64,000 nt of DNA from Nannocystales bacterium (GTDB lineage: Bacteria; Myxococcota_A; Polyangia; Nannocystales; Nannocystaceae). The notes beneath the pieces are model-generated. The model did not search any database. It worked only from the letters and a program-made list of their open reading frames with translations, and was not told where the DNA came from. Where the stretch lies: the NCBI GenBank assembly GCA_050633305.1, contig JBOEGF010000018.1, positions 320,001 through 384,000 of the forward strand, given 5' to 3'. The stretch's first letter is position 1; each line of letters opens with the position of its first letter. The translations under genes and the position numbers were made by a program. Positions 7,831 through 46,142 of this stretch are shown here, piece by piece.

Positions 7831-8931
7831 TCAGGCCACCAACCCGCGACCTGCGAAGGTCTCGCGCATGCGATTCAGCGCCGTGACCTGAATCTGCCGG
7901 ATGCGCTCCCGTGAAAGGTCGTGAAGCTTGCCGACCTCCCGGAGTGTCATCGGTGCGCTGCCGTCCAGGCCAAAGCGTTGTCGAATGATCTCCTGTTGCA
8001 TGACGGGGAGCGAGCCGACCGCCTCGCGAAGCCCATCCGACCAGGCCGTCGCGTCGAGGGCCTCCTCGTACTCGGGGCAGGGGATCGGAAGCTCCTCGAC
8101 GAGGACCGGTTGGCTCGTCTTCGTGGTCGGGTCGTGCGCGATGGCGCGGGTGTACTCGACCGCGAGGAGCCGGCGAACGCGCTCCACGGTGAAGCCGGTG
8201 CACTCGGCAAGTTCCTCCGGGGTTGCCGGTCGGCCCTGCTGCGACTCGAACTGGACCCGAGCGCGCACCAGGGTTTGCTGGCGCTCAGCCACGTGCACGG
8301 GCAGCCGAATCTCTCGGCCTCGATCCGAGAGGGCTCGCCCGATCGCGTGGCGAATCCACCACACCGCGTAGGTCGAGAAGCGGAACCCACGGTCGGGGTC
8401 AAAGCGGTCCACGGCCTTGAGGAGCCCGGTGTTTCCTTCTTGGATGAGGTCCGAGAACGAGAACAGCCTTCGCTCGTAACGGCGAGCGATGCTGACGACG
8501 AGACCCAGGTTGGCCGCGACGAACTGATCTCGCAGCTGTCGTGCACGGTTGATGCTGGCCTGCAGCTCCATGCCGTTGACTCCGCATTCGGGGTGCGTGT
8601 GCACCCAGGCGGTGAGCCGCCGCGCGACTTCGCAGTCACGGTCAGCGGCGACCAGGGCGTCGCGCACACTTTGCGGCCACTGATCGCCACGTTTGCGAAG
8701 TGGTGGAGCTTTGTCGCCCAGGACCGCCTTGATTTCTTTTCGTAGGACCTTGTCGGGTGCCTGAAGGAGACATGTCCAGATGCTCGCCTTCGCACCAGTT
8801 AGCCGCCGCGCGAGGTCGAGCTCTTCGTCGGCTGACAGTCGCTGGGTCGACGACATGTCGTCGAAGTAGGCATCCAGGGGGCGGTCTTGATTGCGGCTCC
8901 GCGGTACTTCCCGCGCGTAACTTTCGGGCAT
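7831..8931 (-). CDS. Sigma-70 factor, RpoD/RpoS-like, no region 1.1
   Basis: ANLGLVVSIARRY, DLIQEGNTGLLKAVDRFDPDRGFRFSTYAVWWIR, TLREVG..LSRERIRQI. Confidence 0.93.
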   Translation of the reverse strand: MPESYAREVPRSRNQDRPLDAYFDDMSSTQRLSADEELDLARRLTGAKASIWTCLLQAPDKVLRKEIKAVLGDKAPPLRKRGDQWPQSVRDALVAADRDCEVARRLTAWVHTHPECGVNGMELQASINRARQLRDQFVAANLGLVVSIARRYERRLFSFSDLIQEGNTGLLKAVDRFDPDRGFRFSTYAVWWIRHAIGRALSDRGREIRLPVHVAERQQTLVRARVQFESQQGRPATPEELAECTGFTVERVRRLLAVEYTRAIAHDPTTKTSQPVLVEELPIPCPEYEEALDATAWSDGLREAVGSLPVMQQEIIRQRFGLDGSAPMTLREVGKLHDLSRERIRQIQVTALNRMRETFAGRGLVA

Positions 8932-38704: not shown

Positions 38705-41230
38705 ATGCGGAACGCTTGGCCTTACATGGTGATCTTGGCGCTCTCGGGCGCAACGGCGTGCACCGATTCGGGCGATGGAAACAGCTCCTCGGACACCGAT
38801 TCGAACAGCGACTCGTCCCCGACGAACACCGAGGGTACGGATACCGAGGACACCGACACCGAGGGCACGGACACCGACGGAACGGACACCGACGACCCGA
38901 GCGGAGGCGGCGAGGTCACCGAGTGCGGGACGATGCTCGAGCCGCCGACCAACGGCACCTGCTCGGTCAACGGAGGCGGAGGCGGGGGCATCGTTCTGCG
39001 CGGGAACATCTTGGCTCCCGAGGACACGCTTCGCGGAGGGGAGGTCTTCGTCGACGCGAGTGGACGCATCGCATGCGTGGACTGCGATTGCAGCGGAACG
39101 CCCGGCTATGACGCTGCGGCGGTGGCTACGTGCGCCGACGCTGTGATCAGCCCGGGACTGATCAACCCGCATGAGCACCTCGGATTTGCGGCGAACCGTC
39201 CGATTGGCGATGGACCGCAGCGCTACGACCACCGTCACGAGTGGCGGACGGGCGCGGGCGGGAATATCGAGCTTTCCGTCGACGGGGGTGCCTCCCAGGA
39301 AGAGGTCCTCGCCGCGGAGCTCCGCTATCTGATGAGCGGCGTCACCTCGATCGCAGGTGCGGGCGGAGAGTCGGGCTTGATTCGGAACCTAGACATCTCG
39401 CCGTTGCTCGAGGGGCTTCCGGTCGCGGCGGTGAACACCGACACGTTCCCGCTCGATGACGCGAACGGAACGATGATCGAGCAGGGGTGCAACTACGGCA
39501 ACGGAGCGACGACGGCGTCTCAGATCGCTGGCGAGTCAGCCTACCTGCCGCACATCGCCGAGGGCATCAACCAGGCCGCGCGCAACGAGTTGACGTGCAC
39601 CAGCATGGGCAACCTCGACTTGGTCGCTCGGCAAACGGCGGTTGTGCACGCGGTGGGCGTGGGCGCGGCCGAGGCCCAACTGCTGGGAGACGACTTCACA
39701 CGCGTGGTGTGGTCGCCGCGCTCCAACGTCGTGCTGTATGGCAACACCGCTCCGGTCACGCTGCTCGACCGCATGGGCGTCGCGCTTTCGTTGGGGACCG
39801 ACTGGGTCGCCTCCGGTTCGATGAACATGCTGCGCGAGCTCCGGTGCGCGGATGAGCTCAACGACAACTACTACGACGGCTACTTCTCGGACGCGGACCT
39901 GTGGAAGATGGTCACGACCAACGGGGCCCTGGCCACGGGCACCCACGAGGCGATCGGGATGCTGAAGCCCGGGTACGTCGCCGACATCGCTGTGTACGCG
40001 ACGGGCGACCGCGTGGACCATCAGGCGGTCGTGGAAGCCGAGTTGCCCGATGTCGTGCTCGTGATGCGGGGCGGAGATGCTCTGTACGGCGACGACGCTG
40101 TCATGGCATCGGCCGGCGTGGGGAAGGGGAACTGCGAGGCCTTGGACGTCTGCGGTACCGCCAAGCGGGCCTGTGTGGCCGACGATGCGGGCCCTTCGCT
40201 TCAAGCGGTGCAAGGTGCCATCGAGAGCACGTACCCGTTGTTCTACTGCGACGTTCCGCAGAACGAGCCTTCGTGCGTTCCCACGCGGCCCGAGTACGCG
40301 GGCATTCAAGACGGTGACGCGGATGGTGACGGCGTCGGGAACGAGACCGACAACTGCCCGAGCATCTTCAACCCGGTCCGGCCGCTTGAGCAGGCTCAAG
40401 CCGACGCCGACCAAGACGGAACGGGTGACGTCTGCGACGTGTGCCCGCTCGATGGCGGGGACGCGTGCGCGGGCCTCGAGGGCGCCGACCTCGACGCGGA
40501 TGGGGTGCTCAACGGAGACGACAACTGCCCGCTGCAGCCCAACGCCGATCAGGCGGATGCCGACGAGGATGGCAAGGGAGATGTCTGCGATTCGTGTGGT
40601 GAGTCCAACCCCGGCGCGTCGGGTTGCTCCGCGACGATCGCCGCCATCCGGAATCCCGACCACCCGGCTCACCCCAACGAAGGCACGCCAGTCACCGTGA
40701 GCGGGGTCTACGTCACAGCCGTTCGCGACGACGGTTCTGGCTTCGTGATCCAGGACGACTCCCTTGAGCCTTGGACGGGAATCACCGCCTTCGGTTCCTC
40801 GGCCGGGCTTCAGGTCGGCGACCGGGTCACCGTTTCAGGAACCTACGCGGAGTTCTTCGACCTCAGCCAGATCGAAGACGCCGCAGCGACCGTCGAAGCC
40901 TCTGGCGCTTTGCCGTTCGACGCGGTCGCCTTCGACGTCGCGGACCTCGTCTCGGGGCCGGATGCCGAGTCCTACGAGTCCATGCTCGTGAGCATCGGCG
41001 GCGTTTCGATCACCACGATGAACCCCGACGACCCCGAAGACTTCGACGAATTCGAGGTCTCTGGCGGCTACCGGGTCGATGACCAGCTCTTTGGTGCGCT
41101 GGACAACGTATGCGCCGACGGCGAGACGTTCGACGGAATCATTGGGGTGCAGACCTACAGCTTCGGCAACTACAAGCTGCTGCCACGCGACGCGAGCGAC
41201 TTCGACAACGCATCGTGCACGCCCTTCTGA
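38705..41230 (+). CDS. Amidohydrolase-family lipoprotein with thrombospondin type-3 repeats and OB-fold-like C-terminus
   Basis: Lipobox ATAC; PGLINPHEH, PHIAEG, VVHA, LGTD; repeated DxDxDGxxxxxDNCP; GFVIQD..VGDRVTVSG..EFF. Confidence 0.85.
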   Translation: MRNAWPYMVILALSGATACTDSGDGNSSSDTDSNSDSSPTNTEGTDTEDTDTEGTDTDGTDTDDPSGGGEVTECGTMLEPPTNGTCSVNGGGGGGIVLRGNILAPEDTLRGGEVFVDASGRIACVDCDCSGTPGYDAAAVATCADAVISPGLINPHEHLGFAANRPIGDGPQRYDHRHEWRTGAGGNIELSVDGGASQEEVLAAELRYLMSGVTSIAGAGGESGLIRNLDISPLLEGLPVAAVNTDTFPLDDANGTMIEQGCNYGNGATTASQIAGESAYLPHIAEGINQAARNELTCTSMGNLDLVARQTAVVHAVGVGAAEAQLLGDDFTRVVWSPRSNVVLYGNTAPVTLLDRMGVALSLGTDWVASGSMNMLRELRCADELNDNYYDGYFSDADLWKMVTTNGALATGTHEAIGMLKPGYVADIAVYATGDRVDHQAVVEAELPDVVLVMRGGDALYGDDAVMASAGVGKGNCEALDVCGTAKRACVADDAGPSLQAVQGAIESTYPLFYCDVPQNEPSCVPTRPEYAGIQDGDADGDGVGNETDNCPSIFNPVRPLEQAQADADQDGTGDVCDVCPLDGGDACAGLEGADLDADGVLNGDDNCPLQPNADQADADEDGKGDVCDSCGESNPGASGCSATIAAIRNPDHPAHPNEGTPVTVSGVYVTAVRDDGSGFVIQDDSLEPWTGITAFGSSAGLQVGDRVTVSGTYAEFFDLSQIEDAAATVEASGALPFDAVAFDVADLVSGPDAESYESMLVSIGGVSITTMNPDDPEDFDEFEVSGGYRVDDQLFGALDNVCADGETFDGIIGVQTYSFGNYKLLPRDASDFDNASCTPF

Positions 41231-41297: not shown

Positions 41298-41795
41298 GTG
41301 GCCAACAACCTTGCCCGGGAGGCCGTCGATTTCGGCTTTCGCACCGCCTACAAAACGGCGCACCGGATGCTCCGTGCCTACTGGGGGATTCGCAACCCGC
41401 AGACCCACGGGGCCCTGATCGCCGCCTGGTACGACGGCCAGATCTTGCTGGTGAAGAACTCGTATCGGGCCGAGTACACGTTGCCCGGTGGCTACGTACG
41501 CGCCGGCGAAACGCCGGAACAAGGCGCGGCTCGGGAGCTTCGCGAGGAGGTCGGCGTCGACGTTTCGCCCGCTGACCTGAGTCTCGCCTACGAAGACACC
41601 AAGCCCTACGAGAACCGTCGCGACCACGTGACCATCTGCGAGGTCAAGCTCGAGCGGCCGATCGAGCTCGCGGTCGACAACCGCGAGGTCGTTTGGGCGG
41701 GATTCCGACGCCGCGATGAGGTGCTCTCGCTGCCGATCGTTCCGCACCTGCGCGAGTACCTGACCGCATCCCAAGAGCGCACCGGCGACAATTGA
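41298..41795 (+). CDS. NUDIX hydrolase
   Basis: Nudix box LPGGYVRAGETPEQGAARELREEVG. Confidence 0.92.
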   Translation: MANNLAREAVDFGFRTAYKTAHRMLRAYWGIRNPQTHGALIAAWYDGQILLVKNSYRAEYTLPGGYVRAGETPEQGAARELREEVGVDVSPADLSLAYEDTKPYENRRDHVTICEVKLERPIELAVDNREVVWAGFRRRDEVLSLPIVPHLREYLTASQERTGDN

Positions 41796-42118
41796 AAGAA
41801 CCTGAGCTCGAGCGGGGTGGAGACCCGACCGAGCCCAGGCTCTTTCCTGGGCGGAGGCTTCGCGCTGGGCGAAGCCTCGGTCTTTCAAGTTAAGCTATCG
41901 GCGTAAGGCTAAGGCAAGCGGAGAAAAGCTAAGTCGCGCGGTCGTTCAAGCTAAGCGTCAGATTCAAGGACAAGTCAGGCTAGGTTCGAACTCGGTCGGG
42001 AAGAGTTAAGTCGGCCGGGTTCGATCGAGGCTAAGGTCAGGTCAAGGTCCGCGGAGAGGTCGTTTTTCAAGGTAAGCCAAGGAGTAAGCAGGTAGGCCAG
42101 GCGAACTCTTGCGGATAC
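41795..42118 (-). ncRNA. Candidate sigma-54-dependent repeat-rich sRNA
   Basis: Consensus -24/-12 promoter upstream; 19 CUU motifs; 3' hairpins; no credible ORF; both ends estimated. Confidence 0.6.
41833..41878. terminator. Tandem GC-rich hairpins (terminator or RNA 3' domain)
   Basis: gcccagg/cctgggc (41833-41852) and gaggcttcgc/gcgaagcctc (41854-41878). Confidence 0.65.
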
Positions 42119-42128
42119 CAAGACTGTC

Positions 42129-42145
42129 TGCAGACGGTGTGCCAA
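42129..42145 (-). promoter_or_regulatory. Sigma-54 promoter
   Basis: Minus strand TTGGCACACCGTCTGCA, GG-N10-GC. Confidence 0.7.
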
Positions 42146-42355
42146 ACCGTCAGCAATACAGAATCGTTGAGAAAAACCGTCAAACGAGTCCGAGTGCCCC
42201 GATCCGCGCACCCGGGGCCATGACGCAAATGCCCGAACTGGCGCCGATCGGGTTGTCAGGCCTGACATCGATGTCGTGCGGACTCGCGGACAGGCCGCCG
42301 CGGGATCCCTGTGGCCCGCTCAAGTCCACCTCGGGGTCGCCGATGGCCTGAAGCG

Positions 42356-42832
42356 ATGCCTTCTCAGGATCCCGAACGCCGCCGCGCACCCCGATACAAC
42401 GTGACGTTCTCGATGGTGTGTGACTCCGGCGATGCCTTCGGCAGCGCGGTCGTCGTCAACCTCAGTGACTCCGGCGCCCTCGTGCAGACCGAAGATGACT
42501 ACGCTGAGGGGGACAAGCTGTCGTTGGTTCCCGTGGGGGAGGCGGGGGACATCCTGTTCGACCTACCGGCCACGGTTGTCCGCATCCTCGATGACCCCGG
42601 TCCGGGCCGCATCAAGCGCTACGGCGTACGGTTTTCGGGACTGACACTTCCACGGATTCGCGCGCTTCGGACGTTGTGCGCGGCGATGCCTCCGACGCCG
42701 GACGAGCTTCCGGAGTCGGAGGCGCCGCAGGGCGGTCCCGCGCGTAGCGGCAGCGAGCCCCATTTTCGAATTCGAACGCGGGTCGGGGGGAGTCCGGGGA
42801 CGCCTCGGTGGGCGAGGCGACCCTTCGGATAG
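42356..42832 (+). CDS. PilZ domain protein
   Basis: ERRRAPR (RxxxR) and NLSDSG (D/NxSxxG) motifs. Confidence 0.88.
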   Translation: MPSQDPERRRAPRYNVTFSMVCDSGDAFGSAVVVNLSDSGALVQTEDDYAEGDKLSLVPVGEAGDILFDLPATVVRILDDPGPGRIKRYGVRFSGLTLPRIRALRTLCAAMPPTPDELPESEAPQGGPARSGSEPHFRIRTRVGGSPGTPRWARRPFG

Positions 42833-43510: not shown

Positions 43511-44260
43511 TCACAGCACGAACGGGACGATGGCCCGCCGATTGGGGGGCAGGTTCGGGAAGGTGCGCCGATACCATAGGTGATGGGAGACCGCTCGGGG
43601 GAGCAACAGTGCGACCGCGAGCGTGGCTGTGGCGAGTCCAGGCTTGGACCAGGTCAGGATCGCCCATCCAACCCACATCAGCATCTCTCCGAGATAGTTC
43701 GGGCAGGACACCTCTTCGAAGAAAATCCCCCGAGGGAGCATGTGTCCGACGTCGCCGCGGCGCCGCAGGTTGATGAGCGAGAGGTCGGCCGCGCGGGAGA
43801 CGAACATCCCGGCGACAAACAACATGGCGCCGTAGAGGAAACGAATGCTCCACAGCCAGCGCAACGGATACGCGCGCCAGGTCTCCGCGATGACCAGCCC
43901 GTTGAGGTGAGCGAGCGCGGCTGTGAATAGGGCGCCCAGGACCACGACAGTCCAGGGCATACGCTTGCGATGGGTGCCGCGGATGAGCGCGGGATACAGC
44001 ACGCCTCGCCAGCCGTACGCGAGCATCCACAGCGCCAACATGATCAGCGGGACCACCCCACCGCCCCCGCCGTCGTAGACGGTCCACGGACAGAGGACCA
44101 AGCCGGGGACGGCGATCAAGACCCAGGCGAGCCGGATCGGAACGCCGCTGGCGTCGGGGGAGGCGTGGCGGCCATATCGGAGTGGGGCTCGTCCGGTGAT
44201 CACGAACAACACCCCGGATGCGGCGAAGAGGGTTCCGAGCATCAGCGTGGTGGGGGTCAT
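43511..44260 (-). CDS. 3-oxo-5-alpha-steroid 4-dehydrogenase (steroid 5-alpha-reductase)-like protein
   Basis: [46 protein letters not shown]. Confidence 0.85.
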
Positions 44261-45111
44261 ACGAGCTCCGTCCCGCATACGCGGCAGAAGTTGGCGTCGT
44301 CGGCGTGCCCCGCAGCGTTGCACTCCTGGCATGTGACGGGCTCGTTCACGGGCCCTACGTTCATCGCCTGGACATACTCGGCAGAGACGATTCCCGTAGG
44401 CACTGCGAGGATGCCGTACCCGAGCAGCATGAGAATCGCCGCGACGGCTTGGCCTGGGACGGTGCTCGGCGCAATGTCCCCGTAGCCGACCGTGGTCATC
44501 GTGACGATCGCCCAGTACATGCCGCGAGGGATGCTGCTGAATCCGTTCTCCGCACCCTCGATGAGGTGCATCGTGGCGCCCATCACGACCACGATGGTGA
44601 GCACCGCGCCCATGAACACGGTGATCTTCGCCGCGCTGGACTTGAGGGCATTGAGCAGCTGGTTCGCCTCGCCCAGCATGCGCATGACCTTGAGGACCCG
44701 GAAGACCCGAAGCAGTCGAAGCACTCGGATGACAAGCAGGGAGTGCGCACCGGTGACGACGATCCCGATGAACGACGGGAGGATCGAGAGCAGGTCGACG
44801 ATGCCGAAGAACGACACGACGTAGCGGAGCCGGTGCCGGGCGACCCAGAGGCGAATCGAGTACTCGGCGAGGAACAGCACGGTGAAGACCCAATCCAGCA
44901 CCCGAAGCGCGGTGCCGAACCGAGCCGAGAACGCCTCGACACTTTCGAGCATCACGGCGAGGACGCTGGCGAGGATCAAGATCAACAAGCCCACGTCGAA
45001 CGCGCGCCCGGCCGGGGTCGCGGTACCGAAGATGATCCGTCCCAGACGCTGGCGTGCCCCGTGGCGGTCGCCAGCGGCCATCTCCTCCGCCGGGGGTGAG
45101 GTCTCGCTCAT
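44257..45111 (-). CDS. Voltage-gated potassium channel (ion transporter)
   Basis: S4 RVLRLLRVFRVLK; selectivity filter TTVGYGD; C-terminal CxxC..CxxC. Confidence 0.93.
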   Translation of the reverse strand: MSETSPPAEEMAAGDRHGARQRLGRIIFGTATPAGRAFDVGLLILILASVLAVMLESVEAFSARFGTALRVLDWVFTVLFLAEYSIRLWVARHRLRYVVSFFGIVDLLSILPSFIGIVVTGAHSLLVIRVLRLLRVFRVLKVMRMLGEANQLLNALKSSAAKITVFMGAVLTIVVVMGATMHLIEGAENGFSSIPRGMYWAIVTMTTVGYGDIAPSTVPGQAVAAILMLLGYGILAVPTGIVSAEYVQAMNVGPVNEPVTCQECNAAGHADDANFCRVCGTELV

Positions 45112-45215
45112 GCGTGCCGGAGTGTAGCGAACACCACCGTAGACAGAACCATGACGTACGAGGACGGGAGTGTGACCACACCTAGCGGGCCGCAGCGGCA
45201 CACTGCTTGTCGACG

Positions 45216-46142
45216 ATGAGCGTTTTTGACGTCCCACAAGAGCAGCCGCGCGCACCCGGGAAGCTGGCGCGGTCTCTGCGCGACTACCAGCTGAAGGACG
45301 TGGGTCCGTTTGCGATCATCCACGTTCTGGGCATCGCTGGTGTGTTCATGGGCGCCAGCTGGAAGGTCTGGACGCTCTGCTTCGCGCTCTACGTTGTGCG
45401 CATGTTCGGCGTGACCGGGTTCTATCACCGCTACTTCGCGCACCGCACGTTCAAGACCAGCCGATGGTTCCAGTTCGTCGCGGCGTTTGTGGCTCAGTCC
45501 GCGGCGCAACGCGGAGCGCTGTGGTGGGCGGCGCATCACCGCGACCACCACAAGTTCTCCGACACCGAGAAAGACCTCCACTCGCCGCGGCAACACGGCT
45601 TTTGGTACTCGCACGTCGGCTGGATCTACGACCACAACGATGTGAGCAAGTACGCCCGCATCAAGGACTTCTCGCGCTACCCGGAGCTGGTCATGCTCGA
45701 CAAGTACTGGCTCGCTCCGGCGATCTTCCTCGCAGTGCTCTGTCTCGCTTTTGCGGGGCTCTCAGGCCTGCTCGTCGGGTTCATGTTCAGCACGGTCTTG
45801 CTCTGGCACGGGACGTTCACGATCAACTCGCTTTCCCACGTCTGGGGGTCCCGCCCCTACGAGACCGCCGATGACAGCCGGAACAACTGGTTCCTCGCGA
45901 TCATCACCATGGGCGAGGGGTGGCACAACAACCACCACCACTACATGAACTCGACCCGGCAGGGCTTCCACTGGTGGCAGTACGACATCACCTACTACGG
46001 CCTGAAGGTGCTGAGCTGGGTGGGGTTGATCTGGGACATCAAGGAGCCACCGGCCCACATCGTTGCAGGGGTCAAGCGAACGAGAAACGCGAAGCCCTCC
46101 GCCGCTCCTTCGGCCAAGGGTAGCGCGAGCCCCTCGACCTGA
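45216..46142 (+). CDS. Delta-9 acyl-CoA desaturase
   Basis: His boxes HRYFAH, HRDHH and HNNHH. Confidence 0.93.
   Translation: MSVFDVPQEQPRAPGKLARSLRDYQLKDVGPFAIIHVLGIAGVFMGASWKVWTLCFALYVVRMFGVTGFYHRYFAHRTFKTSRWFQFVAAFVAQSAAQRGALWWAAHHRDHHKFSDTEKDLHSPRQHGFWYSHVGWIYDHNDVSKYARIKDFSRYPELVMLDKYWLAPAIFLAVLCLAFAGLSGLLVGFMFSTVLLWHGTFTINSLSHVWGSRPYETADDSRNNWFLAIITMGEGWHNNHHHYMNSTRQGFHWWQYDITYYGLKVLSWVGLIWDIKEPPAHIVAGVKRTRNAKPSAAPSAKGSASPST

Follow-up and report, generated by a model that had tools for sequence, protein, structure and literature searches.

Predicted sigma-54-driven RNAs with repeated URRCUU motifs in Nannocystaceae, candidate decoys for an RNA-binding repressor

To our knowledge, few bacterial systems have been described in which an RNA serves as decoy for a protein. 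CsrB, RsmY and RsmZ are decoys of CsrA/RsmA, and CrcZ and CrcY of Pseudomonas are decoys of Hfq/Crc; for the latter, PMC8395346 describes an RpoN promoter, a two-component activator, IHF, repeated single-stranded motifs and paralogs. In myxobacteria, Pxr is a sigma-54-dependent small RNA (sRNA) of 108 nucleotides (nt) with three stem-loops, encoded beside its two-component system (pxrK-pxrR) and reported for Cystobacterineae in PMC10217877 and PMC5684412. Two further systems act by base pairing: NrsZ, a sigma-54-dependent sRNA of 226 nt, and FopS/RbpB, from an Hfq-less lineage, in which an RRM protein binds a family of paralogous sRNAs. The literature used for comparison further includes PMC11697453, PMC13370968 and PMC11928866. 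Here we describe a locus in a 64,000-nt stretch of DNA from a Nannocystales bacterium (the window; contig JBOEGF010000018.1, positions 320,001 to 384,000, from the 11-Mb genome G000). The locus carries a predicted non-coding RNA (RNA A), has a paralog elsewhere in the genome (RNA B) and apparently represents a real RNA gene family that is undescribed in the literature. A literature search returned no report of this RNA, with most subscription journals and the M. xanthus sRNA candidates of bioRxiv 10.1101/2025.09.11.675593 outside the comparison.

Like CrcZ/CrcY, RNA A is predicted to be long and has a sigma-54 promoter with activator sites, and a two-component system is linked to the family by synteny at paralog B; unlike CrcZ/CrcY, its motif is URRCUU rather than A-rich and it has no Rfam match. 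Hfq (PF17209) gave no matches in G000, which is 92% complete, in a search whose controls were positive in 5/14; M. xanthus is without Hfq according to bioRxiv 10.1101/2025.09.11.675593. With CsrB, RsmY and RsmZ the family shares many motif copies in the same sense as in the candidate target mRNAs. It differs from them in that GGA is depleted (a single GGA in the body of RNA A), that the bodies show no structure beyond that of shuffled sequences, and that leaderless mRNAs have the candidate sites within their first codons. The host does encode csrA (PF02599, E 2.2e-20 in G000), as do 28/29 family genomes vs 33/171 others. A CsrA decoy was rejected because GGA and AGGA words are depleted although csrA is present. 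In G000, csrA (G000:C32:90795-91040, L206) is followed by a gene that we take to be fliW-like. The family resembles Pxr in being a myxobacterial sigma-54 RNA with a two-component system near paralog B. RF01812 (Pxr) had no match at the locus or in G000, in a genome search without a positive control (0/151 genomes), and the Pxr primer sequences printed in PMC5568312 showed no likeness by eye. While NrsZ and FopS pair with their targets, no signal of complementary targets of RNA A or RNA B was found in 1168 start regions. The family most likely works like CsrB or CrcZ and is a member of neither.

The initial annotation, made from the window alone, had proposed a sigma-54-driven non-coding RNA with a repeated motif, lying outside known families. 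That proposal is supported, because promoter, motif and terminator are kept while the sequence of the body turns over. Conservation of promoter and motif in relatives had been set beforehand as a test, and both were found. The element of RNA A gave BLAST matches in 6/6 same-genus genomes and in 0/33 others, and the promoter, with correct GG-N10-GC spacing, is present in all seven genomes of the genus. In all seven the promoter is retained and the terminal hairpin hardly varies; the body between them does vary and has 17–25 CUU in each RNA. No reading frame is common to the seven homologues, in line with the earlier remark that no credible open reading frame (ORF) lies downstream of the promoter, and no Rfam family reached its gathering score in the window and six further loci; at E values up to 10 the matches were weak and chance-like.

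More distant copies were reached with a sequence model, and a shared promoter design was read from 14 loci. In 14/14 the order was a GACA-N4-TGTC palindrome, 30–33 nt, a second such upstream activator site (UAS), 64, 75–77 or 87 nt, and the sigma-54 box; the distances from the second site (UAS2) to the box are steps of about one helical turn. Searching with the pattern of the promoter alone matched 36/72 family genomes, and the reversed control matched none. In an all-species collection the same pattern matched 76 loci, 49 of which are followed within 250 nt by 10 or more CUU. Records of myxobacteria or unclassified organisms account for 48 of these 49, including Plesiocystis pacifica, Enhygromyxa salina and Paraliomyxa miuraensis, and L160, an alphaproteobacterial record with a poor promoter, was dropped. 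From the organisms of these records we infer that the bacterial family concerned is Nannocystaceae. A looser pattern applied to metagenomes gave 38 CUU-rich loci among the 117 matches listed; none of three viral matches was CUU-rich. On metagenome or viral contigs (L287, L296, L298, L324, L331, L333, L334, L351, L369, L382 and L406) these tandem sites, together with a good sigma-54 box, are mostly followed by short unknown ORFs, possibly as phage promoters that use a host activator.

The composition that first drew attention to the locus was recounted and is exact: between 41884 and 42090 the plus strand holds 19 AAG (9 TAAG, 8 CAAG) and no CTT, and a recurring 12-mer (41884, 41945, 42066) and 9-mer (41906, 42028) stand where they had been placed. 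Among 2,196,792 windows of 207 nt in the genome, only 5 non-overlapping clusters have at least 4 TAAG, and the locus is the second densest. The single higher scorer is a long Lys/Ala-rich tandem repeat on the minus strand of G000:C14 (~270250-270800), which reads as putatively coding and, we presume, histone-H1-like. The 12-mer had been taken for the repeat unit; the actual unit is URRCUU at 5-nt spacing. Nor did the suggested period of ~60 nt withstand comparison, as self-identity at lags 61 and 121 (0.35 and 0.33) equals that at lags 115 and 56 (0.35 and 0.33), Tandem Repeats Finder reports 0 arrays, and the seven genus RNAs vary from 254 to 334 nt.

Motif statistics were computed on 50 non-redundant bodies of the 127 collected and compared with dinucleotide shuffles. 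UGGCUU, present in 47/50 bodies, has 130 occurrences vs 10.5 in shuffles; UAGCUU occurs 70 times vs 7.0 and UGACUU 109 times vs 21.1. CUU recurs at a lag of 5 nt 215 times, with ~82 expected. GGA, on the other hand, is depleted (81 vs 133.6), as is AGGA (3 vs 18.0). The bodies contain 15% A, and their folding is on a par with that of shuffled sequences (mean z -0.07).

Comparison within the genus also moved the 3' end of RNA A, which had been placed at hairpins spanning 41833-41878: the conserved terminal hairpin is 41794-41846, and 41854-41878 forms a variable penultimate hairpin. Across 14 sequences, 8/21 pairs of the terminal hairpin change on both sides, and in the 3' hairpin of RNA B 8/12 pairs covary; 0/500 shuffles attain the score in either case, and since related sequences can exceed such shuffles, these figures are support and not probabilities. 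A model of the 3' domain of RNA B (R3, 20 rows) matched 63/72 family genomes, 41/42 near-complete ones and 1/133 other genomes of the class. Of 20 matches inspected, 18 were family loci (4 of them coinciding with training rows), all with a CUU-rich body upstream (17 within 200 nt) and 15 with a sigma-54 box found by script. The remaining two, including the single one outside the family, were rejected as generic terminators. RNA B also has single-copy conserved 3' motifs. In G000 its promoter lies at C22:47766-47914 on the minus strand (L087), and the RNA would measure ~520 nt, including the extended 3' portion that is typical of its genus. Locus B is divergent from argC or argB. A conserved gene without a Pfam match also converges on RNA B (G000:C22:46239-47174; L087:1740-2675); its Atlas look-alikes are MutH-like (score 0.81), which is a lead only.

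While RNA A has no adjoining regulator gene, RNA B converges on its two-component system, and near it lie genes for a response regulator with a sigma-54 AAA domain, a TPR protein and a small receiver-like protein. By eye, and with a kinase-box consensus that we assumed, the C-terminus of the TPR protein resembles a membrane histidine kinase. The response regulator is present in 42/42 near-complete family genomes. Its gene lies 4.3–9.6 kb from RNA B in 46/46 genomes with both on one contig; in 14/60 they are on different contigs. This response regulator is most likely the activator acting at the UAS, as judged from gene neighbourhood. The protein stays below every NCBIfam cut-off, and similar proteins occur in 49/171 other genomes of the class. 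At 18 loci around orthologues outside the family no such RNA was found within ~10 kb, and one of them has the same site before a sigma-54 promoter. Beside an orthologous kinase gene of another family, a CUU/UUG-rich leader was observed (L248, minus strand, ~locus position 7880), with no matching promoter seen.

In G000, other sigma-54 promoters with this UAS mostly precede leaderless genes for acidic proteins with lipoprotein-like N-termini, as read with lipobox and Shine-Dalgarno (SD) consensus sequences that we assumed. These candidate lipoproteins have no family name in Pfam or NCBIfam, where weak EF-hand and FG-GAP matches were the only ones. After the two RNA loci had been removed from 88 sigma-54 promoters, UGGCUU was found in the first 70 nt of 4/16 transcripts with UAS vs 0/70 without (Fisher 8.6e-4; 4.6e-3 with two paralogs counted once). 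Family-wide, 14/45 leaderless genes beginning with Met-Ala open with the motif (11/41 without G000), with a background of 16/529 Met-Ala genes in G000. Thirty fetched Met-Ala loci divided into 9 with motif and UAS, 1 with motif only, 1 with UAS only and 19 with neither. Promoters selected by the UAS showed the motif in 7/18 cases in five other genomes and in 0/4 in ten genomes of other genera. These target sets share members and come down to a small number of gene families. At L100 (the same place as L080), a lipoprotein gene stands under the complete tandem-site promoter and has CUU-type sites in its leader, adjoining the ribosome-binding region. Motif clusters were sought upstream of the RRM, CSD and csrA genes, and 1 site was found across the 6 regions.

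For one lipoprotein family, 26 loci from 10 genomes yielded 12 with promoter and UAS. Four of the 12 carry the CUU-type motif, all in genera with a CUU-type RNA A, and seven, in genera without locus A, have no motif. One more, in a genome (G015) of the genus g10, opens with a different, G-type motif, and this genus has also changed its RNA A: at 10/10 loci examined, the RNA at locus A keeps the promoter type and hairpin but is G-rich, with GGUUGG occurring 50 times vs 4.8 in 10/10 RNAs. RNA B of g10 retains the CUU motif. A further ten g10 genomes contributed 24 loci, among which 5 leaderless genes, one in each of 5 genomes, open with the G-type motif, so that a leaderless member of the lipoprotein family begins with a GGUUGG-type motif in 6/11 genomes. 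In the g10 RNA A sequences (L266, L267, L268, L270, L272, L273, L276, L278, L279 and L281) we also observed a three-tier G-quadruplex pattern in 3/10, and an enrichment of CAGGA (10 vs 2.6), a possible CsrA site.

The positions of the features of locus A are given in Table 1.

Table 1. Features of the RNA A locus; coordinates are window positions.
Feature	Position	Strand	Basis or remark
RNA A, predicted non-coding RNA, paralog A, ~326 nt	41793..42118	-	+1 inferred from sigma-54 box
Repeat body of RNA A	41884..42101	-	17 CUU(A/G), 11 CYURRCYU octamers, 6 URRCUU hexamers, 1 GGA
Sigma-54 -24/-12 promoter box	42129..42145	-	GG-N10-GC spacing correct; kept in alignment
Putative IHF-like site, between activator sites and promoter	42161..42172	-	by-eye reading of the spacer; inference
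UAS2, proximal upstream activator site	42220..42233	-	64-87 nt before -24 GG, 14/14 loci
UAS1, distal upstream activator site, palindrome GACA-N4-TGTC	42264..42275	-	30-33 nt before UAS2, 14/14 loci
Penultimate hairpin, variable, absent from G006	41854..41878	-	genus comparison
Terminal hairpin with U-rich tail	41794..41846	-	near-invariant in genus, covarying across genera
NUDIX hydrolase gene, convergent, usual paralog A neighbour	41331..41795	+	PF00293 E 5.7e-14
PilZ-domain gene, divergent, start uncertain	42350..42832	+	PF07238 E 2.2e-13
Steroid-5-alpha-reductase-like and ion-channel genes, upstream markers of locus A	43511..45255	-	PF02544, PF00520

Locus A is flanked by the steroid-reductase-like and ion-channel genes on one side, which recur at homologous A loci, and by the NUDIX gene on the other, orthologues of which occur in 29/72 family genomes. 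The terminal hairpin probably has a second role as terminator for the convergent NUDIX transcript. Most homologous loci showed no PilZ-domain gene. An 841-aa amidohydrolase with thrombospondin type 3 repeats (38705-41230), encoded upstream of the NUDIX gene, is syntenic at several A loci. The IHF-like site, read against a consensus that we assumed, is a weak match in the window and nearer that consensus in several homologues.

On balance, and judging from sequence comparison, we favour the reading that RNA A and RNA B are CsrB/CrcZ-like sponges for a candidate repressor that is probably neither CsrA nor Hfq. The proposal that the RNA is a protein sponge had already been made for the window, and it gains support from the same-sense motif at the starts of co-regulated mRNAs and from the matching motif switch in g10; motifs of the same sense in RNA and mRNA point to a shared binder and not to mutual pairing. 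In such a system, the sigma-54 enhancer-binding response regulator, encoded with the TPR-membrane kinase, would bind the tandem GACA-N4-TGTC sites and drive both RNAs along with a group of lipoprotein genes, most of them leaderless. An RNA-binding protein with sequence specificity would recognise URRCUU, chiefly UGGCUU, in the first codons and block translation initiation. The RNAs would offer many motif sites in an unstructured body and titrate the protein, so that the lipoproteins would be made only under strong signal, a feed-forward threshold. RRM domains read short single-stranded words. We infer that RRM proteins are the simplest candidates for the binder; G000 has four RRM genes and one CSD gene as candidates. 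More tentatively, the system may be a third kind of bacterial repressor decoy beside Csr/Rsm and Hfq/Crc, in which the predicted protein represses leaderless surface-lipoprotein mRNAs inside their first codons and is titrated by two co-activated sigma-54 RNAs, decoy repeats and target codons having switched together in one genus.

Several observations weigh against this proposal. Motif sites are barely more unpaired than the remainder (0.54 vs 0.50 across the 50 bodies), with a larger excess in the seven genus RNAs. Of 17 sequencing runs found, all with small shares kept as contigs, 4 from distant relatives were examined; contigs covered the relatives' terminal hairpin and continued into unlike sequence with the body uncovered, which is uninformative on expression. 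The tie between activator and UAS is one of synteny only. RRM genes are present in 50/50 family genomes, so their presence does not discriminate. Because the mRNA signal emerged first in G000 and comes from ~3–5 gene families of related genomes, the p-values overstate it. The motif is not enriched in 1168 SD-led start regions, nor do 3574 intergenic regions show a specific sense bias (UGGCUU 80 sense vs 50 antisense; control hexamer 64 vs 43). In genera with RNA B only, 0/7 sigma-54/UAS lipoprotein genes carry the motif, which leaves RNA B without a candidate target there. The g10 switch, finally, amounts to one event in one lineage; the CUU-type motif is found in two other g10 paralogs, the start of many g10 genes is unassignable, orthology was assigned from domain matches and architecture, and the 6/11 is a raw count.

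The binder could instead be another RNA: an sRNA with a complementary, purine-rich seed would repress the lipoprotein mRNAs, and RNA A and RNA B would titrate that sRNA. This accounts equally well for the same-sense motif, and a single seed change could explain the g10 switch, but the two purines of the motif can be GG, AG or GA, which is a poor fit to one perfect seed. Furthermore, the exact 8-nt complement has 41 non-coding carriers in G000, none of which looked by eye like a stand-alone sRNA (not a rigorous exclusion), Hfq was not found, and RNA A and RNA B of g10 pair no better than shuffles in 4/4 genomes. We regard such an sRNA as unlikely. Alternatively, the RNAs may store or decoy a general pyrimidine- or UG-preferring factor (ribosomal S1, a cold-shock protein or a nuclease) while the mRNA motif reflects a preference of leaderless translation or of signal peptides rather than a dedicated repressor. 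N-terminal codons are commonly U-rich, the independent gene families are few, and one CSD and four RRM genes are present. Against it, leaderless sigma-54 Met-Ala genes without UAS carry the motif in 1/20 cases, and the mRNA motif shifts together with RNA A in g10; we give this idea slight credence.

The initial annotation had also considered pairing with purine-rich mRNA sites, for which the 1168 start regions gave no support. A multi-seed base-pairing sRNA acting on purine-rich translation-initiation regions in the manner of NrsZ or FopS would, like NrsZ, be pyrimidine-rich, single-stranded and sigma-54-dependent, and the conserved 3' motifs of RNA B could serve as seeds. However, the anti-SD word CCUCC is depleted in the 50 bodies (15 vs 36.6), complements of the motif are unenriched in the SD-led starts (ranks 967, 1802 and 3496 of 4096), and the candidate mRNAs bear the motif itself rather than its complement, which makes this mode of action doubtful. 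That there is no RNA gene at all, and that the region is instead a degenerate repeat, a DNA element or a gene for a small peptide, is very improbable: the contigs examined leave the body of RNA A uncovered and a 97-codon ORF overlaps it (41975-42268), but this ORF starts upstream of the promoter, no frame is shared by the seven homologues, and throughout the family the promoter is combined with the strand-specific motif and covarying hairpins at two loci.

With few decoy systems known to us and Hfq absent from M. xanthus, post-transcriptional control in myxobacteria is poorly understood. The RNA family described here provides a sequence for use as bait, a set of candidate targets, a candidate activator and a natural switch in specificity, and with these in hand the missing protein could be fished out of strains in culture; the family is present in records of Plesiocystis pacifica, Enhygromyxa salina and Paraliomyxa miuraensis. 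If the proposed decoy mechanism is true, these bacteria would provide a case of specific repression of leaderless mRNAs via the coding start.
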